Shown here piece by piece: positions 15,834-42,366 of a stretch of 46,780 nt of DNA (positions are counted from its first letter, which is position 1; the number at the start of each line of letters is the position of its first letter). The notes below the pieces were generated by a model. That model saw only the letters and a list, made by a program, of their open reading frames with translations. It did not search any database and had not been told where the DNA came from. The translations under genes were made by a program, and so were the position numbers. The stretch covers positions 1-46,780 of IMG/VR virus record IMGVR_UViG_3300037851_000296; one strand, written 5' to 3'. This DNA comes from a virus (taxonomy: Duplodnaviria > Caudoviricetes).

Positions 15834-17054
15834 TTATGCCGTCACATTCTTCAGGATTCCGTGCACCTCAGGAGTCACGACCTGAAGACCGCTCTCCGTA
15901 AGGTACTCGTCAATCCAGCCGTCGGTGCCGTTACCCTGACGGTCGATGAGAAGCTTCGTAGAGCCGTTCGAGAACGGACGGTACATCAGCTTACTGACAT
16001 CAACAGCCAGAGCCCAGGAACCCCAGCCCTGCCCACCGCCAGGACCGTTCTCCAAGAGCCGGTGCTTTATGATGTTGAGCGTACCGTGCGAGGTGAGCCA
16101 CTGCTTCACCGCGATACCGTACGTCTTGTCAGAAGGCACAGTCTGAAGACGGGCAGCAGCAAGCTGGTCTAGAACAGAGATGACACCCGGCGCTGCGAAC
16201 AGCGTACGGGAATCATTCGCCGAGGTCTTGGAGAACACATCCTGAAGCCAAGTCTCAAGCTCAGCCTCCGTCAGTGTTCCACCAGCATCCTTGACCTGCA
16301 TCGAGCCGTTCCCGAACCCCGTGTCGAAGTTCACGAAACCACGGGTCGTGCGCCGAGGGGCACCAGCGGCACTGGTGTCCTCATAGCCTTCCCCGAACAG
16401 GAACGCACGCTCGATGTCTATAGCGTGTTCGATGGCCTTCTCTGCACGCTGGGTCTCTCGGTTCCCGCCGAAGTACGACTCGGACCCCTCACGGGTACGG
16501 GTCGCGCCGAAGGGACGCCGGAATATCTGCGTGAAGTTGGAGACCTGAACGCTCTGCCATTCATCAGGGTTCTGCACGTTCGCACCCTCGGGGTACGCAG
16601 AACCGATGATGAACAGTGAGTCGTTCGTGGACGTAGATGTGGCACCAGTGGTTCCAGCCACCCCACGCACGACGGTCCAGTCACTCGCGGCAACAGCCGT
16701 GATTCGCATGATTTCACCAGTGGACGGGTTCAGGGCGAGGTCATTGACCTGACCGTAGAGCCCGGTGTTGGTGGCAACCGGAATGGTAGTCGTGGTGTTG
16801 TTCACGGACGAGCTGAGGTTCGTGAGCTTGGGGCGGAGGGCCTTCTCATACCACTCGAAACGAGGGTTCGTGGCGACCTTGGACCCCGCCTTCTCCGACA
16901 ACAGCGTGAAGGGAGAGGCGGAAGGGTCAACGTAGAACACCTTAGGACCAACGTCACGGACCAGGATGGTCGTCGTGCTGTTGAAGCCAAGGGTTACATC
17001 GGTACCTAGACCCATAGGGTCGCCAGTTGAACCCTGCTTGATGGTAACAGGCAT
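15834..17054 (-). CDS. Major capsid protein (DUF5309/SU10-like HK97 fold)
   Basis: 'FEWYE', 'NFTQIFR', 'DIERAFLFG' and 'YLTESGL' motifs; ATG 17054 with AGGAGG RBS; follows the scaffold gene. Confidence 0.85.
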   Translation of the reverse strand: MPVTIKQGSTGDPMGLGTDVTLGFNSTTTILVRDVGPKVFYVDPSASPFTLLSEKAGSKVATNPRFEWYEKALRPKLTNLSSSVNNTTTTIPVATNTGLYGQVNDLALNPSTGEIMRITAVAASDWTVVRGVAGTTGATSTSTNDSLFIIGSAYPEGANVQNPDEWQSVQVSNFTQIFRRPFGATRTREGSESYFGGNRETQRAEKAIEHAIDIERAFLFGEGYEDTSAAGAPRRTTRGFVNFDTGFGNGSMQVKDAGGTLTEAELETWLQDVFSKTSANDSRTLFAAPGVISVLDQLAAARLQTVPSDKTYGIAVKQWLTSHGTLNIIKHRLLENGPGGGQGWGSWALAVDVSKLMYRPFSNGSTKLLIDRQGNGTDGWIDEYLTESGLQVVTPEVHGILKNVTA

Positions 17055-17128
17055 ATAGCCTCCTATCAAACATAGTGGGTTTCTGACGATATTCAGGTAC
17101 CAACCGAGGCCGCAAGCGGGTAAATCGG

Positions 17129-18199
17129 TTAGAAGAAGATGCTACCCTTCTGGGTCCTCTCATTACGGAGAGCCAGAACAGCAGCATCGAACTCATCCAG
17201 CGGTCGCTCATCCTTCGGAGGCGCTGCGCCCGTGGCCTTCTCAGCGACAGGCTTCGTAGGAACACGCCGTTGCTGCGTGGTGGGTTTAGGCTTCTCTTGG
17301 GTGAGTCGAGACTCAAGTATCTCTGCTTGAGCCCGAGCCAAGAGCATACCATCTTCAGACTCCACGTAGGACGGGTTCAACTCTAGAACCTTCTGCAACG
17401 CCGGACGCTGGGACGCCTCGTACGCAATCTCGTAGTTCCCAGAATCCGTGAGGTCTAGGGTCCAACCCTCAGACTCCCATGACTTATGAAGCGTCACGAT
17501 GGTCTCAGCGATACGCGAGTCCTCCTCGCTATCAGGCTCAATCTCAGGATGAGCCGAGAAGAACTGAGACAACGCATCGGAAGCAGCACGTGCCGCTTGC
17601 TCTTCGGCGGACTGCTGGTTCCTCTGTTGTTCCGCTTCCATGAGTCTGGTCTGAATCACCTGGTCTATGAGGGGCTTGACCTGAGCAGGGGTCAAAGCCG
17701 TATTCTCTTCCCAGGGCCACTGTTGCTCGCCATCAGCAGCAACAGGTTTCTGTTGCTGCTGCATATATTGCTGGATAGCGGGCACAGCTTCTTGGAGCGT
17801 CTTCTGAAGTTCGAGAGCCTTCTGCTCGACCATCAAACGTTGACGCTCTGCTGCCTTCGCACGTTCTGCCGTCCTGCGCTGAAGGTCACGTAGTTCCTTA
17901 TAGCCCTTCTCAAGCTCTTCGGCACTCGTGTATTTACCAGCCCACCGATGTTCCTCTACGGAAACCTCTTCAGGTTCCTCGACGACAGGTTCTTCGGTCT
18001 CTGGTTCCGCTTCCTGTGGTTCTTCGGCAGTAACGACAGGCTCCTGTTCAGCCTGCTCGGAAGCGGGTTCCTCCTCTGGATATTCCAGTGGCAGTTGCAA
18101 CTGCTCTGGCTCGCCGGTCTCCTCTGCCGAGGGCGGTGTATCCCGGAGGAAATCTAGATTCTCGTTCTCATCAAGGTTCGTCAACCCGAATACGTCCAT
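17129..18199 (-). CDS. Capsid scaffolding/assembly protein
   Basis: Acidic E/P-rich N-terminus; 'WAGKYTSAEELEKGYKEL' motif and coiled coil; lies between portal and MCP. Confidence 0.75.
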   Translation of the reverse strand: MDVFGLTNLDENENLDFLRDTPPSAEETGEPEQLQLPLEYPEEEPASEQAEQEPVVTAEEPQEAEPETEEPVVEEPEEVSVEEHRWAGKYTSAEELEKGYKELRDLQRRTAERAKAAERQRLMVEQKALELQKTLQEAVPAIQQYMQQQQKPVAADGEQQWPWEENTALTPAQVKPLIDQVIQTRLMEAEQQRNQQSAEEQAARAASDALSQFFSAHPEIEPDSEEDSRIAETIVTLHKSWESEGWTLDLTDSGNYEIAYEASQRPALQKVLELNPSYVESEDGMLLARAQAEILESRLTQEKPKPTTQQRRVPTKPVAEKATGAAPPKDERPLDEFDAAVLALRNERTQKGSIFF

Positions 18200-22728: not shown

Positions 22729-22757
22729 AGTATACCACATAGAAGAACAGAAGTCAA
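22729..22757 (-). promoter_or_regulatory. sigmaA/70-type promoter of the packaging/structural operon
   Basis: TTGACT-17 nt-TATACT with a TGTG extension. Confidence 0.7.
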
Positions 22758-22759
22758 AG

Positions 22760-22970
22760 GAAAGGAGAGAAAGAACTTCTGAAGAGAACTTCCTACTGCC
22801 CTCGCTTTCCATCTCCACGCTCGGGCACTCTTCTCTTCTCTTCGCCTTCAGGGTCTCCTCTAGACCCTGAAGGCATCTAGTTCTGTTCTTTCCTTCGCCA
22901 AGCTCCTGAAAGGGAGCTTGGCACTCTTCTCTTCTCTGTGCCCTCGCTCTAATCCCTCTTCGCTCGGGCT
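22760..22970 (-). ncRNA. Candidate hairpin-array small RNA
   Basis: Starts ~6 nt after a perfect consensus promoter; four GCC...GGC hairpins joined by AG-rich linkers; no convincing ORF. Confidence 0.55.
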
Positions 22971-22976
22971 AAGTAC

Positions 22977-23005
22977 ATTATACGATTTCTTTCTTCGGGT
23001 GTCAA
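22977..23005 (-). promoter_or_regulatory. Perfect consensus sigmaA/70 promoter
   Basis: TTGACA-17 nt-TATAAT. Confidence 0.8.
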
Positions 23006-23060: not shown

Positions 23061-23403
23061 GTACACCGTACACCACGGGAACTACATCCCACCTTCGGCG
23101 CTCGTGACAAACGAGCGCCTCAGGGTGTAGCGGGAAGTAAGATTGTAGCGCGCTCTTGTTCGAAGGTACCATATAGATTCTTTCTACGACGGACCTCTCT
23201 TTCGTCCATTCGACTCCTAGGGTCCATAGGGGTTTCGAGGGTTCTAAGGGCCATCCGCAGAGATCAGAAGCACGAATCCCGTAAACCCGAACCGTACCGA
23301 CGGCAGGAAGCGCTCTGAGGGCTACCACGCCTGCCCGCCGCCGGGCGGCAGCCGGGAGGGCTGACGATCTCTCTCTCTCCCGGGGGGGGGTTCCGACGGG
23401 CAT

Positions 23404-23443
23404 AGAAAGACCCCCGGGAGCGGGCCGCGTGCTCCCGAGGGTC
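23404..23443 (-). terminator. Intrinsic terminator
   Basis: GACCCTCGGGAGC/GCTCCCGGGGGTC stem plus TTTCT, directly after the 23453 stop. Confidence 0.65.
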
Positions 23444-23452
23444 CTTAGGTGA

Positions 23453-23812
23453 TCACTTGAGACTGGTCAGGTACAGCTTCAATGCCTCGGGGTTCCCAGC
23501 GAGTGCCGCGAGGACTTGCGGGTCTGCCTGGTGAGTCTTCACCTTGCTTGCCTTGCTCGCCTTCGGTTCCGGCTTCGGCAAGCTTGCAAGCGCTTCGGTG
23601 ATGATCTCTGCCAGAGGCCCGTAGTCGTTCGGGTCGGCGTCCCTTGGGACGTTAATGCTCATGCCCCCGATGCGCCCGGAAACGTTGAGCGAACGCTCCC
23701 CGTTCTTGTCCACGTAGGGTTTGACGATACGGACGGAAAGCTGCCCGCCGTTGTGTGCCGCCACGACGGCGATACCGCCAAAGTCCTGCTGGTACGTGTT
23801 CTCCCACGTCAT
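23453..23812 (-). CDS. Hypothetical early protein
   Basis: ATG 23812 (MTWENTY...) with GGGAGG RBS; followed by a terminator. Confidence 0.7.
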   Translation of the reverse strand: MTWENTYQQDFGGIAVVAAHNGGQLSVRIVKPYVDKNGERSLNVSGRIGGMSINVPRDADPNDYGPLAEIITEALASLPKPEPKASKASKVKTHQADPQVLAALAGNPEALKLYLTSLK

Positions 23813-24205
23813 TGGAGAAACCTCCCTGGTCTCGATGTTCCGGTTGTCAAGATGCGGCCCCGGTCTCGAACGGTAGCAGAGATGAGGGCTGGGCGTCCAG
23901 GAACCCCCCCGGCGATGATCTCGGAGCCCGTGAGAGCCACGGTGACGACTCGAGCCCTCCCCCCCGGGCAAGGAACCCTAGGAACCCTTCCTACGTCGGT
24001 CCTGAGCGTTCCTACGGCCCGGAACGGGGTGCAGGGTGTACCCTCGTCTTCCCCCCGGGGCCGTGGCCCCCGACGGGGGCCGTGGAACCCCCCGCAAGGG
24101 TAGTTAGGGAAAGGAAAGGTAGGTGAATGATGATGAAAGGATGACAAGGAAGCCTATCTCCGCGGTTCAAGCAGAAGTAGGCGATACCAGAGAGAGGAGG
24201 AGGCG

Positions 24206-24403
24206 ATGGCTATTACCTGGACTAAGGCCTGCGGTTGCCAAGTGCGCGAAACTTTACGCACCATCACCATGGCCGACTTAACAGGCAGCACCACCGAAAC
24301 TATCCACTGGTGCCCCGAACACGAACACGAGTCCCCAGCCGCGCGTCAGCTCAAGCGCGAGGAAGCCTGGGCGGAGTACATGAAGAGGCACGACAACCCA
24401 TGA
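24206..24403 (+). CDS. Small hypothetical protein (CxC...CxxH)
   Basis: Strong AGGAGG RBS. Confidence 0.6.
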   Translation: MAITWTKACGCQVRETLRTITMADLTGSTTETIHWCPEHEHESPAARQLKREEAWAEYMKRHDNP

Positions 24404-24424
24404 CTATCAGAGAGAGGTAGCCCG

Positions 24425-24595
24425 ATGGCTGAGTTGTATGACCAGGACCATGAGAAATACCTCAAGTTCAGAAGGACGCAGAAACAGATGGCACTCATGG
24501 TCACGCTCGCTGAGCTAGACCATGACTGGTGTCAGTGGGAGAAAGAATATCTAGACAGCGACGAACGCTGGGAATGCGAGGACGATTGGAGATAA
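24425..24595 (+). CDS. Small acidic, Trp-rich hypothetical protein (56 aa)
   Basis: Hand translation MAELYDQDHE...EDDWR; GAGG RBS; followed by a terminator. Confidence 0.55.
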   Translation: MAELYDQDHEKYLKFRRTQKQMALMVTLAELDHDWCQWEKEYLDSDERWECEDDWR

Positions 24596-24620
24596 ACGTA
24601 AACGGGATGTAAGTAACGTG

Positions 24621-24657
24621 AAGCTCCCCCGGTTCTATACCGGGGGAGCTTTCTTTT
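24621..24657 (+). terminator. Intrinsic terminator between convergent genes
   Basis: 13-bp stem AAGCTCCCCCGGT/ACCGGGGGAGCTT plus TCTTTT. Confidence 0.75.
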
Positions 24658-24662
24658 ATCGC

Positions 24663-24821
24663 CTACTCAGGGTAACAGTACGGACAAGGATGGTACTTAT
24701 TCCAATCCAGTACCCAGTAAGCACGATGACAATGAGGACACGTGTGTCTCAATATGTCTTTCACTGCCTCACAGGCTAGTCCAACAAGGATAAACCCAAC
24801 GATAAGTAGGATAGGGTCCAT
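24663..24821 (-). CDS. Small membrane-anchored Zn-finger protein (52 aa)
   Basis: Hand translation MDPILLIVGFILVGLAC...CPHC...CPYC; AGGAG RBS. Confidence 0.55.
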   Translation of the reverse strand: MDPILLIVGFILVGLACEAVKDILRHTCPHCHRAYWVLDWNKYHPCPYCYPE

Positions 24822-24824
24822 TAT

Positions 24825-24983
24825 TTATCTCCTCGTTTCTATCCATCTTTGGTATCTATACCAGGCGCTGTTCCGTTGAGCTTCCTGCGTACAACGTAGA
24901 CACCAGCCTCTGATAGTATCACCTATCCTTGCCACCCGACCACACCGATTACATCGTTTCTTATAGAGTTTGAAGTAGACCAT
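24825..24983 (-). CDS. Small Zn-finger protein (52 aa)
   Basis: Hand translation MVYFKLYKKRCNRC...WCLRC. Confidence 0.5.
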   Translation of the reverse strand: MVYFKLYKKRCNRCGRVARIGDTIRGWCLRCTQEAQRNSAWYRYQRWIETRR

Positions 24984-24992
24984 GTTAGTGCC

Positions 24993-25859
24993 CTAGTGTT
25001 GTGTACAGCCAGCGTCCGTACAACCACTTCCCAACGCAGACAGCACCCTTTGAAAAGCACTTTGCTGGCCCTTCTTAATCATAGCTCTATTGAGCTTATT
25101 CAGAAATGTCTTATCCAGGTGCGGTTGCTGGTTAGGGTCCTTGCCGTCAGGACACTCGGTAGCATCCAGGGTACACAGCCTGTTCTTATCTGCATACATA
25201 TACGGATGCTTACAGATATCACACGTACCGACGAGCACTGCTCCGGTCCGCAGCTTAGGCTTACCACAAGCACACACCCATAGCCGCATCTTCCCGGTGC
25301 CTACCCCGATGGAATCTTCCGGCTTACGATGGACGTTGAGAGCGGTCACGTCGATACCGTCGGCGATGGTTTGAAGTTCGCTTTCCCATCGTGTTGGATA
25401 CGTGAAGTTGATGTATCCCCAGCCATCCACGACGGTAGCTTCGATACCGAACCTAGCTGCTGCGATACGGAAATCCGCGGAATGATAGCTGGTATCGCTC
25501 GCGGTCCGACTCACCTGGTGCATAGCTTGGTGGAACAGCACCTTTACGATTTCGATACGCGGTTTGTCAAGGATTTCTCCTGCGAGGAATACCTCGCCGT
25601 GGATAGCTTGCTGCCCTGCCATCGCTCCGAGCTTAGCGAAAGCTTGAACGGTCTGGGACTCCCAGCTTCCTGGTTTATACCAGCCTGTTTCCTTACGTCT
25701 CCCTTTCGGAGCGATACCCAGAACAGGCATCTTACTGGCGTAGCTTGTAGCTTTGCCCATGTAGTATTGATTATATCTGTCCAACTCCATGAGAATCTTC
25801 ATGTAGGCTGAGCGAAGCTCAGTGATGGCAGGACCGATATCACCTTTCATGATAGGCAT
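24993..25859 (-). CDS. SprT-like zinc-metalloprotease-fold protein with a degenerate active site (HQAMH)
   Basis: 'LFHQAMHQ....SYHSADF' plus C-terminal CxC...CxxC; GGGAG RBS. Confidence 0.6.
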   Translation of the reverse strand: MPIMKGDIGPAITELRSAYMKILMELDRYNQYYMGKATSYASKMPVLGIAPKGRRKETGWYKPGSWESQTVQAFAKLGAMAGQQAIHGEVFLAGEILDKPRIEIVKVLFHQAMHQVSRTASDTSYHSADFRIAAARFGIEATVVDGWGYINFTYPTRWESELQTIADGIDVTALNVHRKPEDSIGVGTGKMRLWVCACGKPKLRTGAVLVGTCDICKHPYMYADKNRLCTLDATECPDGKDPNQQPHLDKTFLNKLNRAMIKKGQQSAFQRVLSALGSGCTDAGCTQH

Positions 25860-25875
25860 TATTCTCTCCCTTCCC

Positions 25876-27075
25876 TCACTTCTCGATATGGACAGCCTGA
25901 GCGTACGCCGGATGTTTATTCCACCAATAACTTCCTTCGCTCGCCATGGTAACGATGATGAGTTTCCCTCTCGGCGCTACTTCTGGCCAGATGGTTTCAC
26001 TATCGGTGAGCAGGATGATGATGTTCGGGCGGGTCCTGAGTGCTGCGGTATGCTCGATGATTGTCTTCATGTTCGTACCACCACCACCGGTGAAGTCCTG
26101 TGCTCTGATGGTGGCTGATGTACTTAGTCGCTTCTCGCCCTTTACTTCCGTATCACCCCAAACAACAACCATTTCAGAAGCATGAGCCCTAAGGATACCT
26201 GTTACTTCACTCAGGAACACGTCGATACATGACCACACACTACCACTAGTATCTATACCGATAGCTACCACCGGGTCGTAGCTGATGAGGGACGGCAATA
26301 CGAAATCCTCTTCATGTCTGATGTTCTCCCTCTGGTATGAGTAATCCGTCTCACCACCGCTCACTACCTGAACAGCTTGTCTAACGTGCGCTTTCAAGAT
26401 ACTGGTCCAGGGCACCTGCGCTGGTCTAAGGATATCACCTGCCCATCGTTTCAAGTGCCCCGGTGCAGCACCGAACGTCTTTACCTCTTCAGCTACCTGT
26501 TTGAAGATAGATTCTTTCTCCACGCCGGTGATACGTTGGTCATCTTCGGGTTGTGTTCCTGGTCCATCCTCCCACTCATTAGGATTACCAGCACCACCAC
26601 CACAGCCAGGCATGTTATCGTTATCACTACCACCACCCTGCTCGTCCTCCCGCTGGCTGATGATATCGTAATATTCCTCAGCGAGCAATCCATCATCCGC
26701 TCCGATATCTCTCGGGAAGATACCGAACGGAAGGCATATCGTTTCATCTAGCTCCCGGATATAGATACCATCGGCGAGACCGTCGTTGATTTCACAATCG
26801 CCCGCCTGGTTCCATGTATCCGGTCGTCTCTCTACCCTACGCTGATGATGATTGAGCGTCAGGTGGTGAATCTCATGGATAACCGCCATCGTCTGCTCGT
26901 TCAACGACCAGTCGATATCGGAGTCGTAATATAGATTCCAATGCTCATCCACTGCCACCGTACCTATACCTGGTTTCGGGATAGGATTCATACGGAACAG
27001 GATGCTTGAGAAATACGGTGCGGCAAGCCGCACCTTCAATCTCACACCTTCCATATCGAACGTCATAGGTATCAC
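25876..27075 (-). CDS. DUF2201-type metallopeptidase (HEIHH) plus VWA domain protein
   Basis: 'HEIHH', 'WNQAGDCEIN', MIDAS 'DTSGS', 'GGGGT', 'LTD'. Confidence 0.85.
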   Translation of the reverse strand: MIPMTFDMEGVRLKVRLAAPYFSSILFRMNPIPKPGIGTVAVDEHWNLYYDSDIDWSLNEQTMAVIHEIHHLTLNHHQRRVERRPDTWNQAGDCEINDGLADGIYIRELDETICLPFGIFPRDIGADDGLLAEEYYDIISQREDEQGGGSDNDNMPGCGGGAGNPNEWEDGPGTQPEDDQRITGVEKESIFKQVAEEVKTFGAAPGHLKRWAGDILRPAQVPWTSILKAHVRQAVQVVSGGETDYSYQRENIRHEEDFVLPSLISYDPVVAIGIDTSGSVWSCIDVFLSEVTGILRAHASEMVVVWGDTEVKGEKRLSTSATIRAQDFTGGGGTNMKTIIEHTAALRTRPNIIILLTDSETIWPEVAPRGKLIIVTMASEGSYWWNKHPAYAQAVHIEK

Positions 27076-28217
27076 AGTCTCTCGATTAGGGGCAGGAACT
27101 TAGTGTATGCACCATCCCCAACCACGTTGAAATCTGAAAGTTGCTCACCGCATGCGTTACCAGCCTCGATGAGGCTAGGGATAAACCCAGCGAACACATC
27201 CGCGAATCCATTGGTCGCGCACTTACCACCGAACCGCCATGTATCATCCCAGGTAACGGCAGTCATACGCTCGACCACGTACCCGACGAGGTTCGCAACG
27301 ACAGCATACGTCCTGTCAGGTCGGTTCCTGTCGAATACCTCATGCTCATCGAAGCTGCCAGCCAGCACATCCTGCGGCATAGGAAGGTCCATGTTCCGCT
27401 TCCAGGTGATAAACTCAACGGCGGCAGCCTCTCCCACCATGCTGCTGATTAGGTCTAGACGCAGGTTCTCATCATCCACGTCCGTACCAGCGACAGCAAG
27501 CAGATGAGATGCCAAGTCCCATGTCCTAGGGCTAGGCCACGGACCGTCCTGCTTGATTTCTTCTTTCGGCATAGAGATGAGCAAGTTGGGGCGCGCTCGC
27601 ACGAATGAAGCAACCATAGCTCTTTCCTCGGTGAGTCTAGACACTGCCTCATCACCTAGGTCTGTCCGTGCTTTGAACTTCCCGGTCACCATACCCCTAA
27701 CCCACTCATCAAGGTTCGGGACGACAGGGACATGGCCCATCCTGTTGGCGAGCACCCCCGAGATAGGCCAACCACCAGCAGAATCTTCAACGCTGTTAGC
27801 AGCAGCCACGATGGGGACGCCCATCGGGATAGAATCGAAATCCCCAACCCTGCGCTCGTTGAGGATACGCAACAGTGGTGCTTGCTTAGCAGGACTCACG
27901 GTACGCAGCTCGTCGATGAACAGTCCGACGAAATGTCCTGCCTCATGCAACTCATTGATGAAAGTTACCCATGATGGCCCAGTGACAACCACTCCCTTGT
28001 CCGTACGGGTTGGCCAACCTGCGATATCCGTTGGCTCCCTAACACTTGCAAGCAATACGAACAGATGCGACGGTCCGCCATCGCATCCTGCGGCAGTACA
28101 CGGAGTATCTTCAAACATAGACTCCGTGCCAGCCGACTTGCCGATACCTGGTTGCCCGGTCATGAGGACCGGAACCCTAGCCTGAACATACGTGTTCAGG
28201 ACCCGACCAATATCCAT
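27072..28217 (-). CDS. MoxR-like AAA+ ATPase
   Basis: Walker A GQPGIGKS, Walker B LFIDE, 'AAAN', 'LANR' and 'SPRTW'; ATG 28217 with GGGAGG RBS. Confidence 0.9.
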   Translation of the reverse strand: MDIGRVLNTYVQARVPVLMTGQPGIGKSAGTESMFEDTPCTAAGCDGGPSHLFVLLASVREPTDIAGWPTRTDKGVVVTGPSWVTFINELHEAGHFVGLFIDELRTVSPAKQAPLLRILNERRVGDFDSIPMGVPIVAAANSVEDSAGGWPISGVLANRMGHVPVVPNLDEWVRGMVTGKFKARTDLGDEAVSRLTEERAMVASFVRARPNLLISMPKEEIKQDGPWPSPRTWDLASHLLAVAGTDVDDENLRLDLISSMVGEAAAVEFITWKRNMDLPMPQDVLAGSFDEHEVFDRNRPDRTYAVVANLVGYVVERMTAVTWDDTWRFGGKCATNGFADVFAGFIPSLIEAGNACGEQLSDFNVVGDGAYTKFLPLIERL

Positions 28218-28279
28218 CGGACGAACCTCCCTTTCTGGTCTATCCAGCGGGTACCTCCCGCCGTTTAGACCTGAGGCCC

Positions 28280-28309
28280 AGTCTACACCCTCGTCCCCCG
28301 GCGAGTCAA
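28280..28309 (-). promoter_or_regulatory. Promoter of the AAA-VWA operon
   Basis: TTGACT-18 nt-TAGACT. Confidence 0.6.
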
Positions 28310-28335
28310 CCCTGTCCCCCGATCGGGGGACAGGG
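28310..28335. repeat. Perfect 26-bp palindrome abutting the -35 box (possible operator)
   Basis: CCCTGTCCCCCGA|TCGGGGGACAGGG, centred on a GATC. Confidence 0.75.
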
Positions 28336-28602
28336 GGCCAGCGAACGAACACCCCGGCGAAGTAGGCGATGGTTCGGGCGAGACGGTCTAGACTCACGGG
28401 AGCTGCGGCGAGCCGAGAGGCGAGGGACGCGCATCTAGACCGTGACGACCTCCTGACCGTCCCCACGAACTCTCGACCGCACCCGTCCCTCCCAGACCTC
28501 CGAGGGGGTACCTTTATAGGGGTGCCCTCCTCGCTCCAGGTTCCCTGGGGGGACCTGGAGACGGGCCACCACTGGTCCTCAGCTCTTTAAGGAACCAAGG
28601 GG

Positions 28603-28631
28603 TTGACACCTAGGGGTAGGTAGTGTACGGT
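28603..28631 (+). promoter_or_regulatory. sigmaA-type promoter
   Basis: TTGACA-17 nt-TACGGT. Confidence 0.65.
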
Positions 28632-28662
28632 GAACCCAGAGCGAAGAGAGGAGGTGAAGCAG

Positions 28663-29289
28663 ATGGACAGTTTCGGAACCTGGCAGCAAGCCGAACTACA
28701 GGAACAGGACCGGGACGAACAGGACCGGGACGAAGGCCTGGAACAGGAACGAGACCTGGACCTGTACGACCAGGACCAGGAGCAGGACCAGAAGCAGGAC
28801 CAGGAGCAACAGGAGGACCAGCAGAAGGACCAGGACCAGGAGGTCTCGGTCTCGATGACCCACGCAGAGCGGGTCTATCGTACCGTCGAGAGGTCTCCCG
28901 TCCCCTTGCGAGCCTCGACCATCATCGAGGAGACAGGCGGGTTCACGAGCCCTTCTAACGGGTACAGCATCATCCGTTCCCTTGAGACGAAGGGACTCCT
29001 CAAGAGCAAGGCCGATGCCGGAGGAACTCGGTTCTTCAGCAAAGGTCTAAACTGGGATGCGGTCTCGCACAAGCGAGGCCGAAAGCCTGGGAAGCCTGGT
29101 CAGGTACAGAAGGTGGCTGCCAAGCGTAACACCGCCAAGCCTGTGGCAACGGCGCAGCGTTCGACGGTTGGCACGCCCACCATCACGGGGGTTGCCATCG
29201 TGGTCAACCAGGACGGGTCGCACCTTTACTGGCAGACCGAAGGTGGTAAGACCTACCGTGTCGAGGAAGTCGAGAACATCTTCATCTAA
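28663..29289 (+). CDS. Protein with a Q/D/E low-complexity N-terminus, a winged-HTH-like middle and a basic linker
   Basis: GAGGAGGT RBS; 'YSIIRSLETKGLLKS....G..FF' wHTH pattern; CAGGAC/CAGGAG repeats. Confidence 0.7.
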   Translation: MDSFGTWQQAELQEQDRDEQDRDEGLEQERDLDLYDQDQEQDQKQDQEQQEDQQKDQDQEVSVSMTHAERVYRTVERSPVPLRASTIIEETGGFTSPSNGYSIIRSLETKGLLKSKADAGGTRFFSKGLNWDAVSHKRGRKPGKPGQVQKVAAKRNTAKPVATAQRSTVGTPTITGVAIVVNQDGSHLYWQTEGGKTYRVEEVENIFI

Positions 29290-35256: not shown

Positions 35257-35418
35257 ATGCCGTACGGTATCCCGAAAGAGAAGGGCGGTGACTCTGCCGA
35301 GAACGTAAGGAAGATGGAGTCCTGTGTGAAGAACCTCATGAATAAAGACCCGAAACTCACGAAGGATAGAGCTATCGCTATCTGTAAATCTTCCCTGGGG
35401 TTCACGAAAGGGAAGTAA
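35257..35418 (+). CDS. Small basic hypothetical protein (53 aa)
   Basis: AGGAG RBS; MPYGIPKEKGGDS...MESCV...AIAICK. Confidence 0.6.
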   Translation: MPYGIPKEKGGDSAENVRKMESCVKNLMNKDPKLTKDRAIAICKSSLGFTKGK

Positions 35419-35420
35419 CG

Positions 35421-35888
35421 ATGCCTAAACCAGAAGTAATCGAGAAGGCGTTCGAGCACCATCCGTATAGATTCAACAACATCCTTACCCTCGGTGACGG
35501 ATGGGTATTCGGGCCTGCTTTCATCGTCTGGGAACCTAACTTCCATATCCCTAAAGCTCGACCTAAGATTTATCGTAACCTGGATGACAGAGCTTTGAAG
35601 AGGATAGCGAGCAGAATCATCAATGCGGCACCGAAGAAACCTGACCCTGAGGTACAGCTTGATAGGAAGGGGCACCCTCACCCACACCTCAAGACCCCGT
35701 GTAAAGGACGGACCCTCATCATCGGTGGAGAACCACAACCGTGGGAAGCGAGCACGGCCCACTGGCGACTCTATACCGGGAGCTTCTGCGATGGGTTCGC
35801 GTTTGACGCTCCGGTCCTGTACGGGTACCATGAGGGCAAGCTTCGAGTAGTCACGACGTTGAAGCAGAGGGTGAGGTGTTGGGAATGA
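35421..35888 (+). CDS. Hypothetical protein
   Basis: 155 aa, in operon. Confidence 0.6.
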   Translation: MPKPEVIEKAFEHHPYRFNNILTLGDGWVFGPAFIVWEPNFHIPKARPKIYRNLDDRALKRIASRIINAAPKKPDPEVQLDRKGHPHPHLKTPCKGRTLIIGGEPQPWEASTAHWRLYTGSFCDGFAFDAPVLYGYHEGKLRVVTTLKQRVRCWE

Positions 35889-36559
35889 CCCGTTACAAAG
35901 TGGCACGGCCCGACGGATGGGACTTCCGTACCGGCAGCACGGTGAACTACCGTGAGGCCGTCGGCGGAGTGGTCGAGGCCCCGGATTGGCGCAAGGATGG
36001 TGTATGCGGGGGCGGTCTGCATTATTCCCCTACCGCCATCGACGCCCTCTCTTACGGCACCATTCCTTGCTCGCTCTACATCGTCGAACCCGTGGGTGAG
36101 CGAGCGCGCATCGACAGGTGGAAGTCCAAGGCACAGAAGCTCACCGTGGTCGAGGAGGTTACGGACCTCGACGCAGCGTTCGGGTTCCGCTACGCCGAAG
36201 CCTGTCAGCCTGTGAGCCCGTTCCTGCTCCCGAAACGCGAGCCCACGGACGACGATATCGCCTGCTTGCGTGAATGGGCTTCGGTGTGGGCCTCGGTGTG
36301 GGACTCGGTGTGGGCCTCGGTGCGGGCCTCGGTGCGGGCCTCGGCGCAGGTCTCGGTGCGGGCCTCGGTGTGGGTCTATGCCGGTTCCCTGTTCCCTGGC
36401 ATCACCCGCTGGAAGTACGTGGACCATGAACCCGGCGTCTATCCCTACCAGCCCGCCGTGGACCTGTGGAGGCGCGGTCTGGTGCCGTCCTTCGACGGCA
36501 AGGTATGGCGTCTCCATGCCGGTGAGAACGCAGAGGTCGTATGGGAGGGGGTCCCATGA
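35885..36559 (+). CDS. Hypothetical protein with an internal (A/D/V)SV(W/R) tetrapeptide repeat
   Basis: N-terminal 'CGGGLHYSP' domain; 8 x 12-bp repeat. Confidence 0.7.
   Translation: MTRYKVARPDGWDFRTGSTVNYREAVGGVVEAPDWRKDGVCGGGLHYSPTAIDALSYGTIPCSLYIVEPVGERARIDRWKSKAQKLTVVEEVTDLDAAFGFRYAEACQPVSPFLLPKREPTDDDIACLREWASVWASVWDSVWASVRASVRASAQVSVRASVWVYAGSLFPGITRWKYVDHEPGVYPYQPAVDLWRRGLVPSFDGKVWRLHAGENAEVVWEGVP
36278..36373 (+). repeat. 12-bp tandem repeat x8 (consensus GCCTCGGTGYGG)
   Basis: Read directly from the sequence. Confidence 0.9.
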
Positions 36560-36705
36560 CCAACACACAGACCGGGGTTCGCATCGTCGGTCACCCGTTC
36601 TGTCCCGATCTACTGAGCATCCGTGACTTGGGGGAAGCTGATGGTTGGCGCGGGCACCTGATTCGGGGGTTCTTCCGGCTCCTGAAGGTGGTGACCGGCG
36701 TATGA
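36556..36705 (+). CDS. Small hypothetical protein (49 aa)
   Basis: GGAGG RBS; ATGA-coupled on both sides. Confidence 0.5.
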   Translation: MTNTQTGVRIVGHPFCPDLLSIRDLGEADGWRGHLIRGFFRLLKVVTGV

Positions 36706-37028
36706 ACTACACCGAAGCAGAATCGGTCGTGCGGGAGGCGTTAGGCGAACTCTTGGCATCGTTTCCCTACCGACATGAAACGCCAGCGACATTCGCTCCG
36801 GTCGCCGCCCTCGACGAGATGCGGAGGGAGTTTCACCAGAGGACCGAGATGTTACTGAACGTCGAGGTCGAGCGAGACGCCGCCGAGCGCAGACTGGCAG
36901 AGGCGGAGACCGCGCTGAACGGGATGGTGGACCTGTTTGGACGGCAACACGCTGAGGCGTCCGAGGTCTACGCCGTGAAGCAGGCCGTCGCCTACCTTGC
37001 CTCCCGAGACCAGGAGGACCAGGGATGA
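36702..37028 (+). CDS. Hypothetical coiled-coil protein
   Basis: ATG 36702, coupled. Confidence 0.6.
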   Translation: MNYTEAESVVREALGELLASFPYRHETPATFAPVAALDEMRREFHQRTEMLLNVEVERDAAERRLAEAETALNGMVDLFGRQHAEASEVYAVKQAVAYLASRDQEDQG

Positions 37029-37333
37029 ACCGCTGCGTGATGTGCGGCCGGTTCCGGCCCTGGGCCGACCTCGTGTTCAAGTGGGCCTACGAATCGTCCG
37101 TGACGTACCCGAGCGAGGTCGAGTGGTTCGAGTGCCGCCCCGGCCACGGCTGCGCCGGTGAGCGGTACCGACTCGCCCACGCAGACTGGAGTGAAACCGC
37201 CCGCGTGGCCGAGGAATGGAAGGAGCATGCCCATGACACCGAGCGCAGGCTGAGCGGGTGCTATGTCCTACCTGTGGAAGTCCTCACCATAGGAGACACG
37301 TCCGATATGATACCTGAAAGGATGTGGGAATGA
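37025..37333 (+). CDS. Hypothetical protein with Cys motifs
   Basis: AGGAGG RBS; coupled. Confidence 0.6.
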   Translation: MNRCVMCGRFRPWADLVFKWAYESSVTYPSEVEWFECRPGHGCAGERYRLAHADWSETARVAEEWKEHAHDTERRLSGCYVLPVEVLTIGDTSDMIPERMWE

Positions 37334-37740
37334 GGTATACGATACCGTTCCTTATAGCGGTTCTGTTGCCTTCGCCTGTCGAAGCTCACGAACATCGGCA
37401 GGCGAAGTGCACGTACCAGGATATAGACCCTGCGGTGTGGACCGTACCGGAAGTCAAAGCTACGATACGGTGCGCGGTGGAGAAGTTTCCCGTAAGCTCC
37501 GCGACCGCGCACTATATCGCGTACCGTGAGTCTCGGTACCGTGCTACTGCACTGAACAGTAGTAGTGGGGCGTGTGGTGTGTATCAGTTCATACCATCAA
37601 CATGGAACGATATATCTTTAAGGTACTCACGATGGAAGAAGAGATGGAACCTCGGTGATGGGTGTACCAACGCACGAACGAATGTATTGTTCGCTATCAG
37701 GTACGCCCATCAGATAGGATGGGGACCTTGGGCAATCTAA
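37330..37740 (+). CDS. Secreted lytic transglycosylase (SLT/Rpf-like)
   Basis: Signal-peptide-like N-terminus ending VEA; 'IAYRES....A.N....A.G..QF...TW' and 'GWGPW' motifs. Confidence 0.8.
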   Translation: MRYTIPFLIAVLLPSPVEAHEHRQAKCTYQDIDPAVWTVPEVKATIRCAVEKFPVSSATAHYIAYRESRYRATALNSSSGACGVYQFIPSTWNDISLRYSRWKKRWNLGDGCTNARTNVLFAIRYAHQIGWGPWAI

Positions 37741-38384
37741 AGATAGCTGTCGATGCTGACGGCGTACTCTACGAATGGAGTAAGACTGCGAGATACATGC
37801 TCCGGTCGTACAGAGACTATGACGTTGCTGGACCGATGGGGAAGGAATCAACCTCTTGGGATTATATACCTAAGAACGTAGCGCCTCAGGATTGGGATTG
37901 GCTCTGGACCGAGGGTGTAGAACTCGGACTGTTCCGGTACGGTCACCTCGTCACTGGTGCTATCGAGGGAGTGAACCAACTCTCCCGAGTAGGTGAAGTA
38001 GTCCTCGTAACCCATCGTCCGAAACAGGCGGTGAAGGATACCCTGGATTGGCTGAGTTACATCAACCTTCCGTTCTCTGGTATCCATATCCTTACCAACC
38101 AGGAACCGAAATCTATGGTCGATGCGGATATACTCATCGACGACAAACCAGATAATATCTTCGAGTGGGTCATGCACGCGAGATACGCTATCTTGTTCGA
38201 CCGTGAGTGGAACCAGCAAGCGCAAGTCGGGATGCGAGCGAAAGGATGGAACGAAGTTGTCGAGTACGTCGAAGAAATCGGATACCAGATGGGCCAACGA
38301 AAGAACGGACGTACTGGAAAGGTTCTGCGCGGAACTGACGAAACCAACGAGGGACGGGTCGTCCAAACGACAGAGAGGAGATAA
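37719..38384 (+). CDS. HAD-family 5'(3')-deoxyribonucleotidase
   Basis: 'AVDADGVL', 'LIDDKP.N' and 'WN' motifs; start could be TTG 37728. Confidence 0.8.
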   Translation: MGTLGNLKIAVDADGVLYEWSKTARYMLRSYRDYDVAGPMGKESTSWDYIPKNVAPQDWDWLWTEGVELGLFRYGHLVTGAIEGVNQLSRVGEVVLVTHRPKQAVKDTLDWLSYINLPFSGIHILTNQEPKSMVDADILIDDKPDNIFEWVMHARYAILFDREWNQQAQVGMRAKGWNEVVEYVEEIGYQMGQRKNGRTGKVLRGTDETNEGRVVQTTERR

Positions 38385-38550
38385 GCCACCGTGGTATCTA
38401 GACGAGAGTCACGAAGCAGCGATATTCTCGCACCTCGCCAGATGGAAGCGGGGAGAACTAGAGGACCCGGACAGTGGAGCGCATCCTCTGGTCCACGCCG
38501 CATGGAGATGTCTCGCTATAGCTTGCCAGGAAACCGGAAACGTACCGTAG
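38257..38550 (+). CDS. DUF5664-like (dATP/dGTP diphosphohydrolase-related) protein, short
   Basis: 'HLARWKRGELEDPDSGAHPLVHAAW' motif; start uncertain; overlaps the upstream gene. Confidence 0.6.
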   Translation: MSSTSKKSDTRWANERTDVLERFCAELTKPTRDGSSKRQRGDKPPWYLDESHEAAIFSHLARWKRGELEDPDSGAHPLVHAAWRCLAIACQETGNVP

Positions 38551-38561
38551 AACCTGACCCG

Positions 38562-39164
38562 ATGGTGTTCCTGGGGTACTGCCACCCTGGGGTGGTACGT
38601 CATGAGTTTCTGCGGTCGTTGCTAGCGTTGGTACAACACGTCGGGAACGAGTCCTTCCAGTTGATTATCAGTGATGCGTACACAGGACCACTGATTTCAC
38701 GAGCGAGATGTATCCTTGCAGAGACGTTCCTTGCTACCCCGGCTCAGTATCTTCTGTTCGTTGACACTGATATAGACTTCGAACCTACCTTCATAGGTAA
38801 ACTGATAGCGATAGATAAACCCATAGTAGGTGCTCTCTACTATGGGGTTCAGCATTCCGATTATTCTTCTTTCCCGACCGCTCTCCTGCAACAAGAGGAC
38901 GGGTACTATAGACCTATCGGGGTGATACCCGATGATACGGCAGAGGTAGATGCGGTCGGGATGGGATTCACGCTTATCAAACGAGAAGTGGTAGAAGCGA
39001 TAGGAGCAGATAGCGAGAAGCTATTACCTTTCGCAGAAGGTATATGGAAAGATAGAGTGGTAGGGGAAGACTTGATGTTCTGTCTTCGAGCGAAAGAGAA
39101 AGGATACAGTACATGGCTAGCGCCTCAACTTCGGGTAAGGCATATGAAGACGATAGCGGTTTGA
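38562..39164 (+). CDS. GT-A fold glycosyltransferase
   Basis: 'ISRAR', DxD motif 'LFVDTD', 'GMGFTLIKREV' and 'GEDLMFC'. Confidence 0.8.
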   Translation: MVFLGYCHPGVVRHEFLRSLLALVQHVGNESFQLIISDAYTGPLISRARCILAETFLATPAQYLLFVDTDIDFEPTFIGKLIAIDKPIVGALYYGVQHSDYSSFPTALLQQEDGYYRPIGVIPDDTAEVDAVGMGFTLIKREVVEAIGADSEKLLPFAEGIWKDRVVGEDLMFCLRAKEKGYSTWLAPQLRVRHMKTIAV

Positions 39165-39325
39165 CGGCGTATGAGAAGGGATACGTAGAAGGCCGACAGG
39201 CGACACAGAAGCATATGAAGGGACAGATAGATTTCTTCCTGCGAGAGCGTGAAGAGTTCCTTGAGCGTATCCGAGAACTAGAAGCAGAGATACAGCATCT
39301 CCGTAGAACGACGGGCGAAGGATGA
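39161..39325 (+). CDS. Small coiled-coil protein
   Basis: 'YEKGYVEG' motif; TTG start coupled to the glycosyltransferase stop. Confidence 0.5.
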   Translation: MTAYEKGYVEGRQATQKHMKGQIDFFLREREEFLERIRELEAEIQHLRRTTGEG

Positions 39326-39331
39326 GGATAA

Positions 39332-39405
39332 GGGGCAGTAGCTCAGTCGGTTAGAGCACGGTCCTTATAAGGCCGGAGTCGTGGGTTCAAACCCCACCTG
39401 CCCCA
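39332..39405 (+). tRNA. tRNA-Ile, anticodon UAU (CCA not encoded)
   Basis: Acceptor GGGGCAG/CTGCCCC plus discriminator A; D-arm GCTC/GAGC; anticodon stem CGGTC/GGCCG with loop CT-TAT-AA; T-arm GTGGG-TTCAAAC-CCCAC. Confidence 0.9.
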
Positions 39406-39408
39406 CTT

Positions 39409-39927
39409 ATGGAACTATTACTCGGTTGCGGGTCTGCCCGTGATAAGCGTATCTATCCTCATAACCGTGAACACTGGGAACATCTGGTCACCTCGGACAA
39501 TAACATCGCCCATGAACCTGATGTAGTGTGTGACCTAACGCGAACCCCCTGGCCCTGGGATGATAACACCTTCGATGAGGTACACGCTTACGAGGTGTTA
39601 GAGCATCTCGGACAACAGGGGGATTACGTTGCGTTCTTCGAGCAGTTCACGGAGATATGGCGTATCCTCAAACCTGATGGGTTGTTCTGCGCCTCCGTGC
39701 CGAGTCTAGATTCACCGTGGTTGTGGGGCGACCCGAGTCATACGAGGGTCATCGCTCCACAGACTCTCGTGTTCTTAGACCAAGAGGAGTATGGCAAGCA
39801 GGTCGGACGGACAGCGATGAGTGATTTCCGGTATCTGTACCATGCGGACTTCCGTACTGTGTGGAAGTCTCATGAGGGAGAATCGTTCTGTTTCGTTCTT
39901 CAAGCGAAGAAGAGTCCTTCTTCGTAG
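39409..39927 (+). CDS. Class I SAM-dependent methyltransferase
   Basis: 'LLLGCG', 'DL...PWP..D..FDEV.A..VLEHL' and 'EIWRILKPDG' motifs. Confidence 0.85.
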   Translation: MELLLGCGSARDKRIYPHNREHWEHLVTSDNNIAHEPDVVCDLTRTPWPWDDNTFDEVHAYEVLEHLGQQGDYVAFFEQFTEIWRILKPDGLFCASVPSLDSPWLWGDPSHTRVIAPQTLVFLDQEEYGKQVGRTAMSDFRYLYHADFRTVWKSHEGESFCFVLQAKKSPSS

Positions 39928-39960
39928 TCATCTTCCTCTTCCTCGATGAACTTCTTCAGT

Positions 39961-40191
39961 TTATCTTTCTCCCTCCTGTTCTTCGGAGGAGGGGTGTGGT
40001 TCTTCTCTTTCATACCGTTCCTTGAAATGTATCAGAGCCCAGCCGAGGAAACCGATGATGAGCCAGCCGGGGAACGTAGCTACGGTGACTTCGGTGAGAG
40101 TATCACCTTCGGCACGGGTAAGGATAGCTATGGTCTCGAAGACCAAGCCTATCCCTATCCATGCGTACCAGAACACCCGTGGAAGCTTCAT
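39961..40191 (-). CDS. Two-TM membrane protein (lysis cassette)
   Basis: Two hydrophobic helices and a charged C-terminus. Confidence 0.6.
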   Translation of the reverse strand: MKLPRVFWYAWIGIGLVFETIAILTRAEGDTLTEVTVATFPGWLIIGFLGWALIHFKERYEREEPHPSSEEQEGER

Positions 40192-40472
40192 ACCAAGCTA
40201 CGAGCCAATGCCACGACACCCGGCTTGTTCTCTGCGATAGCCCACCATCCACGACCCTTGACCTTGATGAGCACGTGACCGCTGTCCTGCTGGTTCCACA
40301 TGACGACCTTACCAAGCTCACGAAGCTCGGCCTTCGATTCTATGACCTTGGTACCATCACGCACGATATGACGCCACACGCACTCGTACTCGACGGACGG
40401 GATAAGTTCTCCATCCTCCGGGTCTATCCAGTTCTGAACACACTTCGGGTAAAGCTGAGCAAGCGTTGCCAT
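40188..40472 (-). CDS. Hypothetical protein
   Basis: 94 aa, coupled. Confidence 0.6.
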   Translation of the reverse strand: MATLAQLYPKCVQNWIDPEDGELIPSVEYECVWRHIVRDGTKVIESKAELRELGKVVMWNQQDSGHVLIKVKGRGWWAIAENKPGVVALARSLV

Positions 40473-40660
40473 TATCCAGACCTCCGTGCGAAATAGTAGC
40501 CGATAGCGGCACGAGCGAACATATAGACCAGGGCTACCACACCTAGTGACTGTTCTCCCTGGTCCGCAGATAGGTACCCGACGACGACGGCCACCCCTGC
40601 CAGTATAGAGTCACGCACGACCGGGTGTGCGACCCACCATGCCTTAGCTTTCTCAAACAT
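40472..40660 (-). CDS. Putative holin (2 TM)
   Basis: Two TM segments; in the lysis cassette. Confidence 0.6.
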   Translation of the reverse strand: MFEKAKAWWVAHPVVRDSILAGVAVVVGYLSADQGEQSLGVVALVYMFARAAIGYYFARRSG

Positions 40661-40934
40661 CTATGTCTTCCTCCTCATTCCAACGACGTTCATGGCGGTA
40701 AAGGTTCTGGTGTCGATTCAACCAGAACGCATGTTCCCGCAGCTGTATCTCTATGCTATCGAGTCTCATCTCTAGGGCGTGCATCACCTCTTCTATCCTA
40801 GCGACCCCGCTGCCGATGCTATGACCGTTCCCTGTGTCCTGGTCTTTCTTCACCTTGCTCGCTGTCCATGCAGCGAGCACAGCACCGCTAGCTCCTATGA
40901 GAGCAACGACGAGGGTAAGGATGCCGTCCATCAT
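40653..40934 (-). CDS. Single-TM plus coiled-coil lysis-associated protein
   Basis: N-terminal TM followed by a coiled coil; downstream of the endolysin. Confidence 0.6.
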   Translation of the reverse strand: MMDGILTLVVALIGASGAVLAAWTASKVKKDQDTGNGHSIGSGVARIEEVMHALEMRLDSIEIQLREHAFWLNRHQNLYRHERRWNEEEDIDV

Positions 40935-41596
40935 GCGCATGGGGGTCTACCATCAAAGTTCGGGTAAGCATCAACATGAACGTGAGTATGGTAGATGCCT
41001 GTGTAGGGGTTCCACCCCAAGTCCTTCCGCCAGATACGGTTCCCACATATCACGGTATAAACGATTCCTTCGAGGTCTCTGCCTTCCTTCTGTTCCTCTA
41101 CGAGCCTGTTAGCGATGGTCCATAGTTGGTCCATCGTAGAAGCCCCGACATCGAGCGCGTTCGCCCAGGAGTGTTGGCTCCACGTCGAGCTACCCGCCAC
41201 AGGGCGGCAGTTGAAGATGCCCCAGTTCTGAGCGAACGAGTAGTTCCTGAAGACCAAGGTATAGATGCGGTCGATGCGTTCGTTCCCTACGGTGTCTATA
41301 ATCGGAGGAGCTATCTCAACCTTGCGGATGGTGTACGAGTCACCTTCCGTTGGTGCTATGACCAGCTTCGTTCCGAGAGGAGCGTTGACCATCCTGACCT
41401 TGACACGTTTCAATGTCTGGTTGAGGGGTCTCCAAGGACCCCATGCATCCTCTCCGAACTCGTGTGCTTCGCGGATACGGTAAGGTCCCGTCTCAGGGAG
41501 CAGCTTCACACGTAGTCGTTCGATAGCGAACTTCAGGTTCAGCGGCTTAGAGAACTCTCCTGTTCCTAGCTTCGAGGTCTGATACTTGACAGTCAT
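40931..41596 (-). CDS. Putative endolysin, M15/LAS-type Zn peptidase
   Basis: 'R....S...SQHSWANALD' and 'HTHVHVD' motifs; next to holin-like genes. Confidence 0.7.
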   Translation of the reverse strand: MTVKYQTSKLGTGEFSKPLNLKFAIERLRVKLLPETGPYRIREAHEFGEDAWGPWRPLNQTLKRVKVRMVNAPLGTKLVIAPTEGDSYTIRKVEIAPPIIDTVGNERIDRIYTLVFRNYSFAQNWGIFNCRPVAGSSTWSQHSWANALDVGASTMDQLWTIANRLVEEQKEGRDLEGIVYTVICGNRIWRKDLGWNPYTGIYHTHVHVDAYPNFDGRPPCA

Positions 41597-41811: not shown

Positions 41812-42366
41812 CTAATACAGATAACCTACGTGAAGATGGTTATAATGGTCAGGTTGTCTCCATAGGATGTTAGAGAACCCGAATCTATCTGAATGCTGAC
41901 TGAGCCAGTCATAAACTTCGTCGCCTATAGCAAGATTAGGTACCATCAGGTCTACGGCAGCGCCGTAAGCGTGTTCACTCGGGGTGTTGGTCCCCCTGAT
42001 ATTACGTGCGTTGAAGATACCGCCAGAGGAGACTTGCGGGAATCTGGATGTTACCGCGTTCAGGACACGCTCGCTCATGTTCATATACCTTGGGTCAGCT
42101 ACCCCGAAGGATAGTCCTCCGATACCTGCACCAGGTCCGAAGCTTCGGCCCTGGCCACTTCTAGCTTTAGACGCGAGCAACGCGAGGGCAAGTGACTGAG
42201 CCGTGGAAGGACCACTTGACCGGACAGGAGCTATCTGTTTGAGTGATGGAGCCTGTAGCTGGATGTCAAGGATACGTTTACCTATCTCTGACAATCGTTG
42301 GTCAAGGTCTGAGGTATCGAAGGGCTGTTGTTCTGCCAATCGTCTAAGTGTGAAATCACTGGGCAT
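41812..42366 (-). CDS. Putative virion-associated peptidoglycan peptidase (M15/LAS-type)
   Basis: 'R.....SEHAYGAAVD' and 'HYNHLHV' motifs; directly after the giant ejection gene. Confidence 0.7.
   Translation of the reverse strand: MPSDFTLRRLAEQQPFDTSDLDQRLSEIGKRILDIQLQAPSLKQIAPVRSSGPSTAQSLALALLASKARSGQGRSFGPGAGIGGLSFGVADPRYMNMSERVLNAVTSRFPQVSSGGIFNARNIRGTNTPSEHAYGAAVDLMVPNLAIGDEVYDWLSQHSDRFGFSNILWRQPDHYNHLHVGYLY

Follow-up and report, generated by a model that had tools for sequence, protein, structure and literature searches.

A tRNA-Ile(UAU) gene, AUA codon use and GATC avoidance in an uncultured freshwater podovirus-like phage

Phage isoleucine tRNAs that read AUA have been reported for Latilactobacillus curvatus prophages (PMC10688831), for T4, as a tRNA-Ile(CAU) (PMC4810235), and for a vibriophage, as a tRNA(CAU) with lysidine (PMC13191261). 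According to the available excerpt on the L. curvatus prophages, AUA use is 15.7% in the prophages compared with 4.3% in the host, and one of ten AUA-reading prophage tRNAs had a UAU anticodon (PMC10688831). The phage analysed here resembles these systems in encoding an isoleucine tRNA for AUA, and the available excerpts indicate that the phages there use more AUA than their hosts. It differs in that the tRNAs of those systems are mostly of the CAU type, which needs the host TilS, and in that their AUA use is far below the 39% found here; in addition, the excerpts describe neither a link to purging of GATC nor an AUA-free gene block.

Encoded U34 readers of AUA that need no lysidine, as in the phage, are described in the available parts of reports on the tRNA-Ile(UAU) of Mycoplasma mobile (PMC3575796) and on a Bacillus subtilis tilS suppressor (PMC3919564). 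Those genes are chromosomal and act with an adapted isoleucyl-tRNA synthetase (IleRS) or ribosome and without tilS, whereas the phage gene is viral. A further likeness is to a family of viral tRNA-Ile(UAU) genes (e.g. that of Podoviridae sp. ctEqG8, MW202795.1), which have the same anticodon loop as the phage tRNA and often the same U30.G40 pair.

On the DNA side, GATC, AAAA and TTTT are given in the accessible portions of two surveys as being among the most commonly under-represented 4-mers in dsDNA phages (PMC7320823, PMC8410138). The phage is like phages that avoid restriction sites in that these 4-mers are low, as are six-base palindromes. Phage isoleucine tRNAs for AUA, bacterial UAU readers and GATC avoidance are each already in print; no publication joining the three, or describing an AUA-free block, was found in a search outside which most subscription papers lay. 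New here is an AUA-free block of five genes, which is specific for isoleucine and is repeated in a sister phage.

The phage, its tRNA gene and the neighbouring genes

The window, i.e. the whole stretch of DNA analysed, comprises an entire virus record of 46,780 bases with 54% GC and a 196-nt end repeat, and represents a podovirus-like, uncultured freshwater phage of ~46.6 kb. The phage encodes an SU10-type capsid, portal and adaptor, terminase, helicase, a split primase, endonuclease VII and exonucleases. A scan of 53 proteins, in which small ORFs are not all included, found no integrase, RNA polymerase or sigma factor, and an integration site in the tRNA was rejected since this set held no integrase. 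The datasets that hold the window are freshwater metagenomes, and no RNA dataset is among the holders listed. A single gene of ~1,900 aa, without Pfam, PHROG or NCBIfam match, spans the end repeat (42356-46780 and 2-1543), and its product is likely an internal virion protein. A tail-like protein of 1605 aa (8189-13006) carries 20-aa repeats of the VLTTTPTLPAA type at either end, and its middle part is Sortilin-Vps10-like.

Table 1. Features of the window, with positions, strand and main observations
Feature	Positions	Strand	Observations
Whole phage contig	1..46780	.	GATC 8 vs 246 expected; AATT 2 vs 31, TTAA 9 vs 41, AAAA/TTTT 7 vs 76
Major capsid gene and likely scaffold gene	15834..18199	-	ATA 6/28 vs 215/474 in other virion-side genes
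Two sigma-70-type promoter candidates	22729..23005	-	TTGACA-17-TATAAT at 23005 (12/12); TTGACT-17-TATACT at 22757
AUA-poor accessory block, five genes	23453..29289	.	ATA 4/84 Ile
Second, smaller AUA-poor run, accessory ORFs	35257..37028	+	ATA 1/22 Ile; window only
Glycosyltransferase-like gene and 70-aa ORF	38391..39325	+	Upstream of tRNA
tRNA-Ile(UAU)	39332..39405	+	Full cloverleaf; ARAGORN; Rfam; fold
SAM-dependent methyltransferase	39409..39927	+	Begins 3 nt past tRNA A73; widespread phage family

ARAGORN called a tRNA-Ile(tat) at 39332-39406 on the plus strand, and the Rfam model RF00005 matched 39332-39405 with 71 bits against a gathering threshold of 29, over model positions 1-71 of 71. 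This was the sole Rfam match in the window and confirms the preliminary description, in which the only tRNA recognised had the anticodon TAT. A second ARAGORN call, at 28154-28250 with the anticodon 'ggat', had no Rfam match and was rejected. The tRNA folds with -32.9 kcal/mol (z -3.2) and has an A73 discriminator, A37-A38, U12-A23 and, as in eukaryal tRNA-Ile, a U30.G40 wobble in the anticodon stem; CCA is not encoded by the gene. It has G4-C69 and G29-C41, the reverse of C4-G69 and C29-G41, which are described in the available excerpt as minor, E. coli-specific identity pairs of tRNA-Ile (PMC9976931). A sequencing error in the anticodon is unlikely, as the window agrees letter for letter over 37000-41000 with a Logan contig of 46,597 bp from run X2 (depth 40.7), with the limit that run X2 may be the source of the window.

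The genes directly upstream of the tRNA (Table 1) probably share an operon with the replication genes. Downstream, the methyltransferase ATG has no Shine-Dalgarno match and follows the tRNA discriminator by 3 nt (39406-39411), so that 3' processing of the tRNA would give a nearly leaderless mRNA. Of 34 methyltransferase loci, counted without redundancy, only one holds a UAU tRNA, as a member of a large array of tRNA genes, and the methyltransferase was rejected as a partner of the tRNA for want of co-occurrence elsewhere. The surroundings of the tRNA (37662-39927) hold an NT5C-type nucleotidase and a dATP/dGTP diphosphohydrolase domain along with the glycosyltransferase-like gene and the methyltransferase; this cluster could modify DNA or the virion, and no PurZ was seen in it.

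Isoleucine codons and two DNA-level bans

GATC is the most depleted 4-mer in the window, and its depletion extends to all three frames (1 observed vs 86 expected, 1 vs 22 and 1 vs 99). Depletion of a palindrome in all frames is the pattern of type II restriction-site avoidance, and the purge of GATC is likely an escape from restriction. Upstream of the terminase genes, five of the eight surviving GATC sites lie within 660 bases (23262-23917), for the most part in sequence that is probably non-coding, and this cluster is possibly a functional site, for example in packaging or regulation.

The preliminary description had counted the isoleucine codons in 1-1540 by hand, and these counts proved exact (after G, ATA 9, ATT 3 and ATC 0; otherwise, ATC 10, ATA 6 and ATT 2). 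The dependence on a preceding G holds genome-wide. Over 55 hand-picked ORFs with 733 isoleucine codons, those following a G-ending codon were ATA 151, ATT 38 and ATC 1, and those following A, C or T were ATC 391, ATA 137 and ATT 15 (Fisher p = 7e-40); ATA made up 288 of the 733 (39%). AUA encodes isoleucine and is not reassigned: at 54 ATA sites the majority residue of homologues was Ile at 21, Val at 11, Leu at 6 and Met at 3, and at 85 ATC sites it was Ile at 36 and Met at 2, ATA sites aligning with Ile likewise. Reassignment to methionine was rejected on these counts (3/54 vs 2/85), the pooled 10% Met at ATA sites being due to a few sites counted many times.

ATA already accounts for 25% of isoleucine codons in the contexts without a preceding G, a share that would give 48 of the 190 G-context codons as ATA, and the GATC ban therefore explains only ~103 of the 288 ATA codons (~36%). 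The earlier proposal that purging of G|ATC junctions pushed isoleucine to AUA thus holds in so far as G|ATC has been eliminated and G|ATA is its main replacement, but the ban does not account for most of the AUA use.

Relatives at all distances were gathered by capsid search. The sister phage (83% capsid identity), of which L001, L206 and L207 seem to be overlapping contigs, shares with the window both the absence of GATC and the richness in AUA. Among the other relatives, five that are GATC-free (L209, L218, L220, L223 and L224) had 4 G|ATA vs 66 G|ATT, these being 3-14 kb fragments of 48-62% identity, of which L218 and L220 may be close kin. The Streptomyces phages Gilson and Ankus, in which GATC is absent from stretches of 40 kb (0 vs 134) and 25 kb (0 vs 75), had G|ATA:G|ATT of 7:98 and 4:49. 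The usual escape from GATC is therefore ATT, and the idea that loss of GATC by itself leads to AUA is true in the window and its sister and fails in the other five relatives. Gilson and Ankus, which recode to ATT, carry tRNA-Ile(GAU) in large arrays, whereas the window recodes to ATA; the sister and the relatives that took the ATT route are represented by contigs that lie outside the tRNA region. In high-GC relatives ATA is 1-10% of isoleucine codons. The AUA-poor relatives G003 (46,219 bp) and G007 (44,893 bp, with end repeats) use 4% ATA and gave no tRNA match.

The choice of ATA involves a second ban, on A/T runs that contain AA or TT, which are avoided in the window (Table 1). Compared with synonymous-codon shuffles, junction-spanning AAT was found 48 vs 199 times and AAA 83 vs 215 and 70 vs 222 times, and junction-spanning TTT, TAA and AATT were also below the shuffled expectation. 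The same depletion recurs, more weakly, in the sister phage, and by the same test AAT and ATT were not depleted in L218 or Gilson, both of which are ATT users. ATA is the codon left when ATC is excluded after G and ATT is unfavourable, and the second ban is needed to explain the choice of ATA. Junction-spanning ATT was low in one frame only (80 vs 113; 131 vs 133), and the scarcity of ATT codons may therefore be partly translational. Avoidance of A/T runs is common to several relatives with 66% GC. AAGGAG is also depleted in the window (5 vs 31), together with many six-base palindromes.

UAU tRNAs of other viruses and the likely host

UAU anticodons, which the preliminary description had called rare, are so in most cultured bacteria but not in viruses, where one degenerate pattern led to an estimate of ~860 IMG/VR stretches, extrapolated from 120 matches in 9 of 64 parts (flanks obtained for 80 of the 120). 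A73 was present in all 120 matches and U30.G40 in 39 of 104 distinct sequences. The closest tRNAs found to that of the window were viral, with alignment scores of 62 and 61 of 74, and this resemblance suggests that the tRNA comes from an existing viral family and not from a fresh mutation.

For a comparison across viruses, 256 loci of at least 7 kb were reduced to 171 by removal of near-duplicates, and three with fewer than 60 isoleucine codons and one control holding a UAU tRNA were dropped; ORF calling was mechanical, and some giant viruses are among the UAU set. GATC fell short of 20% of its expected count in 9 of 66 UAU loci and in 9 of 101 controls (p = 0.44), the controls being partial loci that may hold the tRNA elsewhere, and the anticipated co-occurrence of GATC depletion with a UAU tRNA was thus not borne out. 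Across the 167 loci, a UAU tRNA brought no ATA excess after adjustment for GC (coefficient -0.014 +/- 0.014). Most carriers have 35-48% GC, are not GATC-free and use ATA no more than their GC predicts, and in ctEqG8, an actinophage-like podovirus, ATA is only 10% of isoleucine codons. Above 58% GC, the median ATA share was 12% in 4 UAU loci vs 3% in 23 controls (p = 0.004).

These results bear on the strict order of events implied by the preliminary description, in which the G|ATC purge came first and forced the use of AUA, and the tRNA was then recruited, the whole forming one coupled strategy of restriction evasion and translation. Consistent with such a chain, ATA occupies 151 of the 190 G-context positions, GATC depletion raises the ATA share by ~0.07 (se 0.021) across the 167 loci, and both AUA-rich close relatives seen are GATC-free. 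We nevertheless consider it unlikely, because the ban yields only about a third of the ATA codons, GATC-free relatives choose ATT, and UAU tRNAs and GATC loss do not co-occur across viruses. Furthermore, G023 (L160), a distant relative that is 90% complete with 43% GC, is GATC-free and uses 34% ATA, and no tRNA match was found in it, contrary to the expected association of the tRNA with AUA-rich, GATC-depleted genomes.

Among cultured phages, whose collections are biased, the matches to the helicase were actinophages in 1317 of 1319 records and those to the primase in at least 1493 of 1511. As the matches of these two genes are almost all actinophages, the host is probably a high-GC bacterium, perhaps of the Actinomycetota. 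The terminase and ATPase matched mostly proteobacterial or cyanobacterial phages, and scanning of genomes for a host turned up a single, distant MAG contig. ATA is scarce in those actinophages for which it was counted (2/612 in Tempo, 16/452 in Sycamore). The Microbacterium phage Tempo, with its 'tRNA-OTHER', was rejected as a cultured model, since that gene is not a UAU tRNA, GATC is normal and ATA is low. The tRNA-like gene of Tempo (MT310894.1, L390:29804-29877) has an abnormal, shortened anticodon loop, and in several related cultured phages the gene is either labelled 'tRNA-OTHER' or left without annotation.

There is genuine doubt about the charging of the phage tRNA, to which the reversal of the two minor E. 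coli pairs adds. In the available excerpts, a UAU tRNA receives isoleucine from E. coli IleRS at 1.1% of normal and Arg or Lys is needed at one site (PMC3575796), B. subtilis shows near-normal growth on a UAU tRNA (PMC3919564), and IleRS2 is stricter on anticodons, in an excerpt that does not extend to a G34U variant (bioRxiv 10.64898/2026.02.03.703510). It is conceivable, at a low probability, that a UAU tRNA is the AUA reader of the host, which may lack TilS, and that the phage supplies one more copy of this reader and bypasses nothing. Such bacteria exist, according to the available part of the M. mobile report (PMC3575796), the holders of the window are freshwater metagenomes, and one homologue of the methyltransferase comes from a Chloroflexota MAG; against this, the closest tRNAs found are viral and the replication genes are actinophage-like, within the bias of cultured collections. 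A host of this kind would be compatible with the compensating role of the tRNA considered below.

AUA-poor genes and the role of the tRNA

The five genes of the AUA-poor block encode an unknown protein, a SprT-like metalloprotease, a DUF2201 VWA/metallopeptidase, a MoxR-like ATPase and a second unknown protein. ATA accounts for 4 of their 84 isoleucine codons vs 284 of 649 elsewhere. A G-ending codon precedes isoleucine at 6 of 84 positions in the block vs 184 of 649 elsewhere, and the block remains nearly GATC-free through this avoidance of G-ending codons. Because the ATA counts had served to choose the block in the first place, it was tested by a permutation scan, in which none of 5000 permutations reached so low an ATA content in any window of 40, 60 or 84 isoleucine codons. 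The contrast with the rest of the genome is specific for isoleucine (ATA p = 2e-14; best non-isoleucine codon p = 0.004).

In the sister phage, the orthologues of three block genes have ATA at 1 of 36 positions vs 64 of 157 elsewhere (p = 3e-6). These orthologues share 60-64% protein identity and differ at 106 of 167 four-fold sites (63%), which indicates that avoidance of AUA is maintained and not merely inherited. Recent acquisition is an unlikely cause of the AUA-free block, because the sister has the same genes in the same place and also AUA-free. The capsid and scaffold genes are AUA-poor as well (Table 1), with 4 of 25 in the sister vs 64 of 157, and the replication genes are AUA-rich (33/78).

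A genome-wide DNA ban cannot give an AUA-free block, and selection against AUA in translation can. The block therefore likely comprises genes that must be made without the help of tRNA-Ile(UAU), and AUA is likely costly in the host, as judged from the block and the capsid genes. Shine-Dalgarno strength was unrelated to whether genes are poor or rich in AUA (rho 0.14, p = 0.35) and was rejected as a marker of early genes, so that any 'early' label for the block can only be conjectural.

The block also bears on the possibility that the tRNA has another role, such as making good the loss of a host isoleucine tRNA to an anti-phage nuclease, or that it is a mere passenger; the enrichment of AUA would then simply follow from the two DNA bans. 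In its favour, many viruses have UAU tRNAs without ATA excess, host tRNAs are cleaved when T4 infects, according to the available excerpt (PMC4810235), and the bans alone favour ATA after G. However, genome-wide bans do not predict an AUA-free block that is isoleucine-specific, GATC-free and conserved in the sister, and we regard this possibility as improbable.

On balance, we lean towards the explanation that tRNA-Ile(UAU) lets most phage genes use AUA cheaply in a host that likely reads AUA slowly. Loss of GATC, likely in escape from restriction, deprives the genome of ATC after G, and avoidance of A/T runs with AA or TT works against ATT, so that ATA is left. The tRNA may have been drawn from the existing viral UAU family; it would be transcribed along with the replication operon, host enzymes would mature it and the host IleRS would charge it, and it would cheapen AUA for replication and virion genes. 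AUA-poor genes would be read before the tRNA accumulates, or at rates at which AUA still costs. The part of the tRNA in making the spread of AUA possible may have been no smaller than its part as a response to it. The preliminary description had held that the tRNA offsets the cost of AUA, and this idea gains from the finding that the AUA-rich and AUA-free parts of the genome are set apart by just the codon to which its sole tRNA is the exact match; the coupled strategy to which it was tied is not supported in the form proposed.

A more specific reading is that AUA acts as a translational timer, in which AUA-rich mRNAs would be translated well only once tRNA-Ile(UAU) builds up and the AUA-free block at once. 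Both candidate promoters of the window, which are consensus matches, face AUA-rich packaging and virion genes, and two equivalent matches exist in the sister; as near-consensus candidate host promoters thus face AUA-rich virion genes in both phages, AUA could be a timer. The AUA-rich replication genes fit plain compensation equally well, and we consider a timer very doubtful. In Streptomyces, the bldA tRNA gates genes that contain TTA. An early vs late codon split is described for HIV-1 in the accessible portions of two reports (PMC4810235, PMC13191261). In both systems a rare codon splits genes into two classes, as AUA does here, where gating would be putative and the timing of the AUA-free block is what we infer.

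It is not settled why phages carry tRNAs, a question that large tRNA arrays make harder to see clearly. Direct tests are limited by the phage and its host being uncultured. With one tRNA, one codon, an internal AUA-free control and relatives that took alternative routes, this phage offers a clean test case for codon compensation and also for the reshaping of codon use by defence pressure at the DNA level. If the timer were true, it would give a small phage a new means of ordering its gene expression, and would be a phage counterpart of bldA gating that is built from codons left by the purging of restriction sites.
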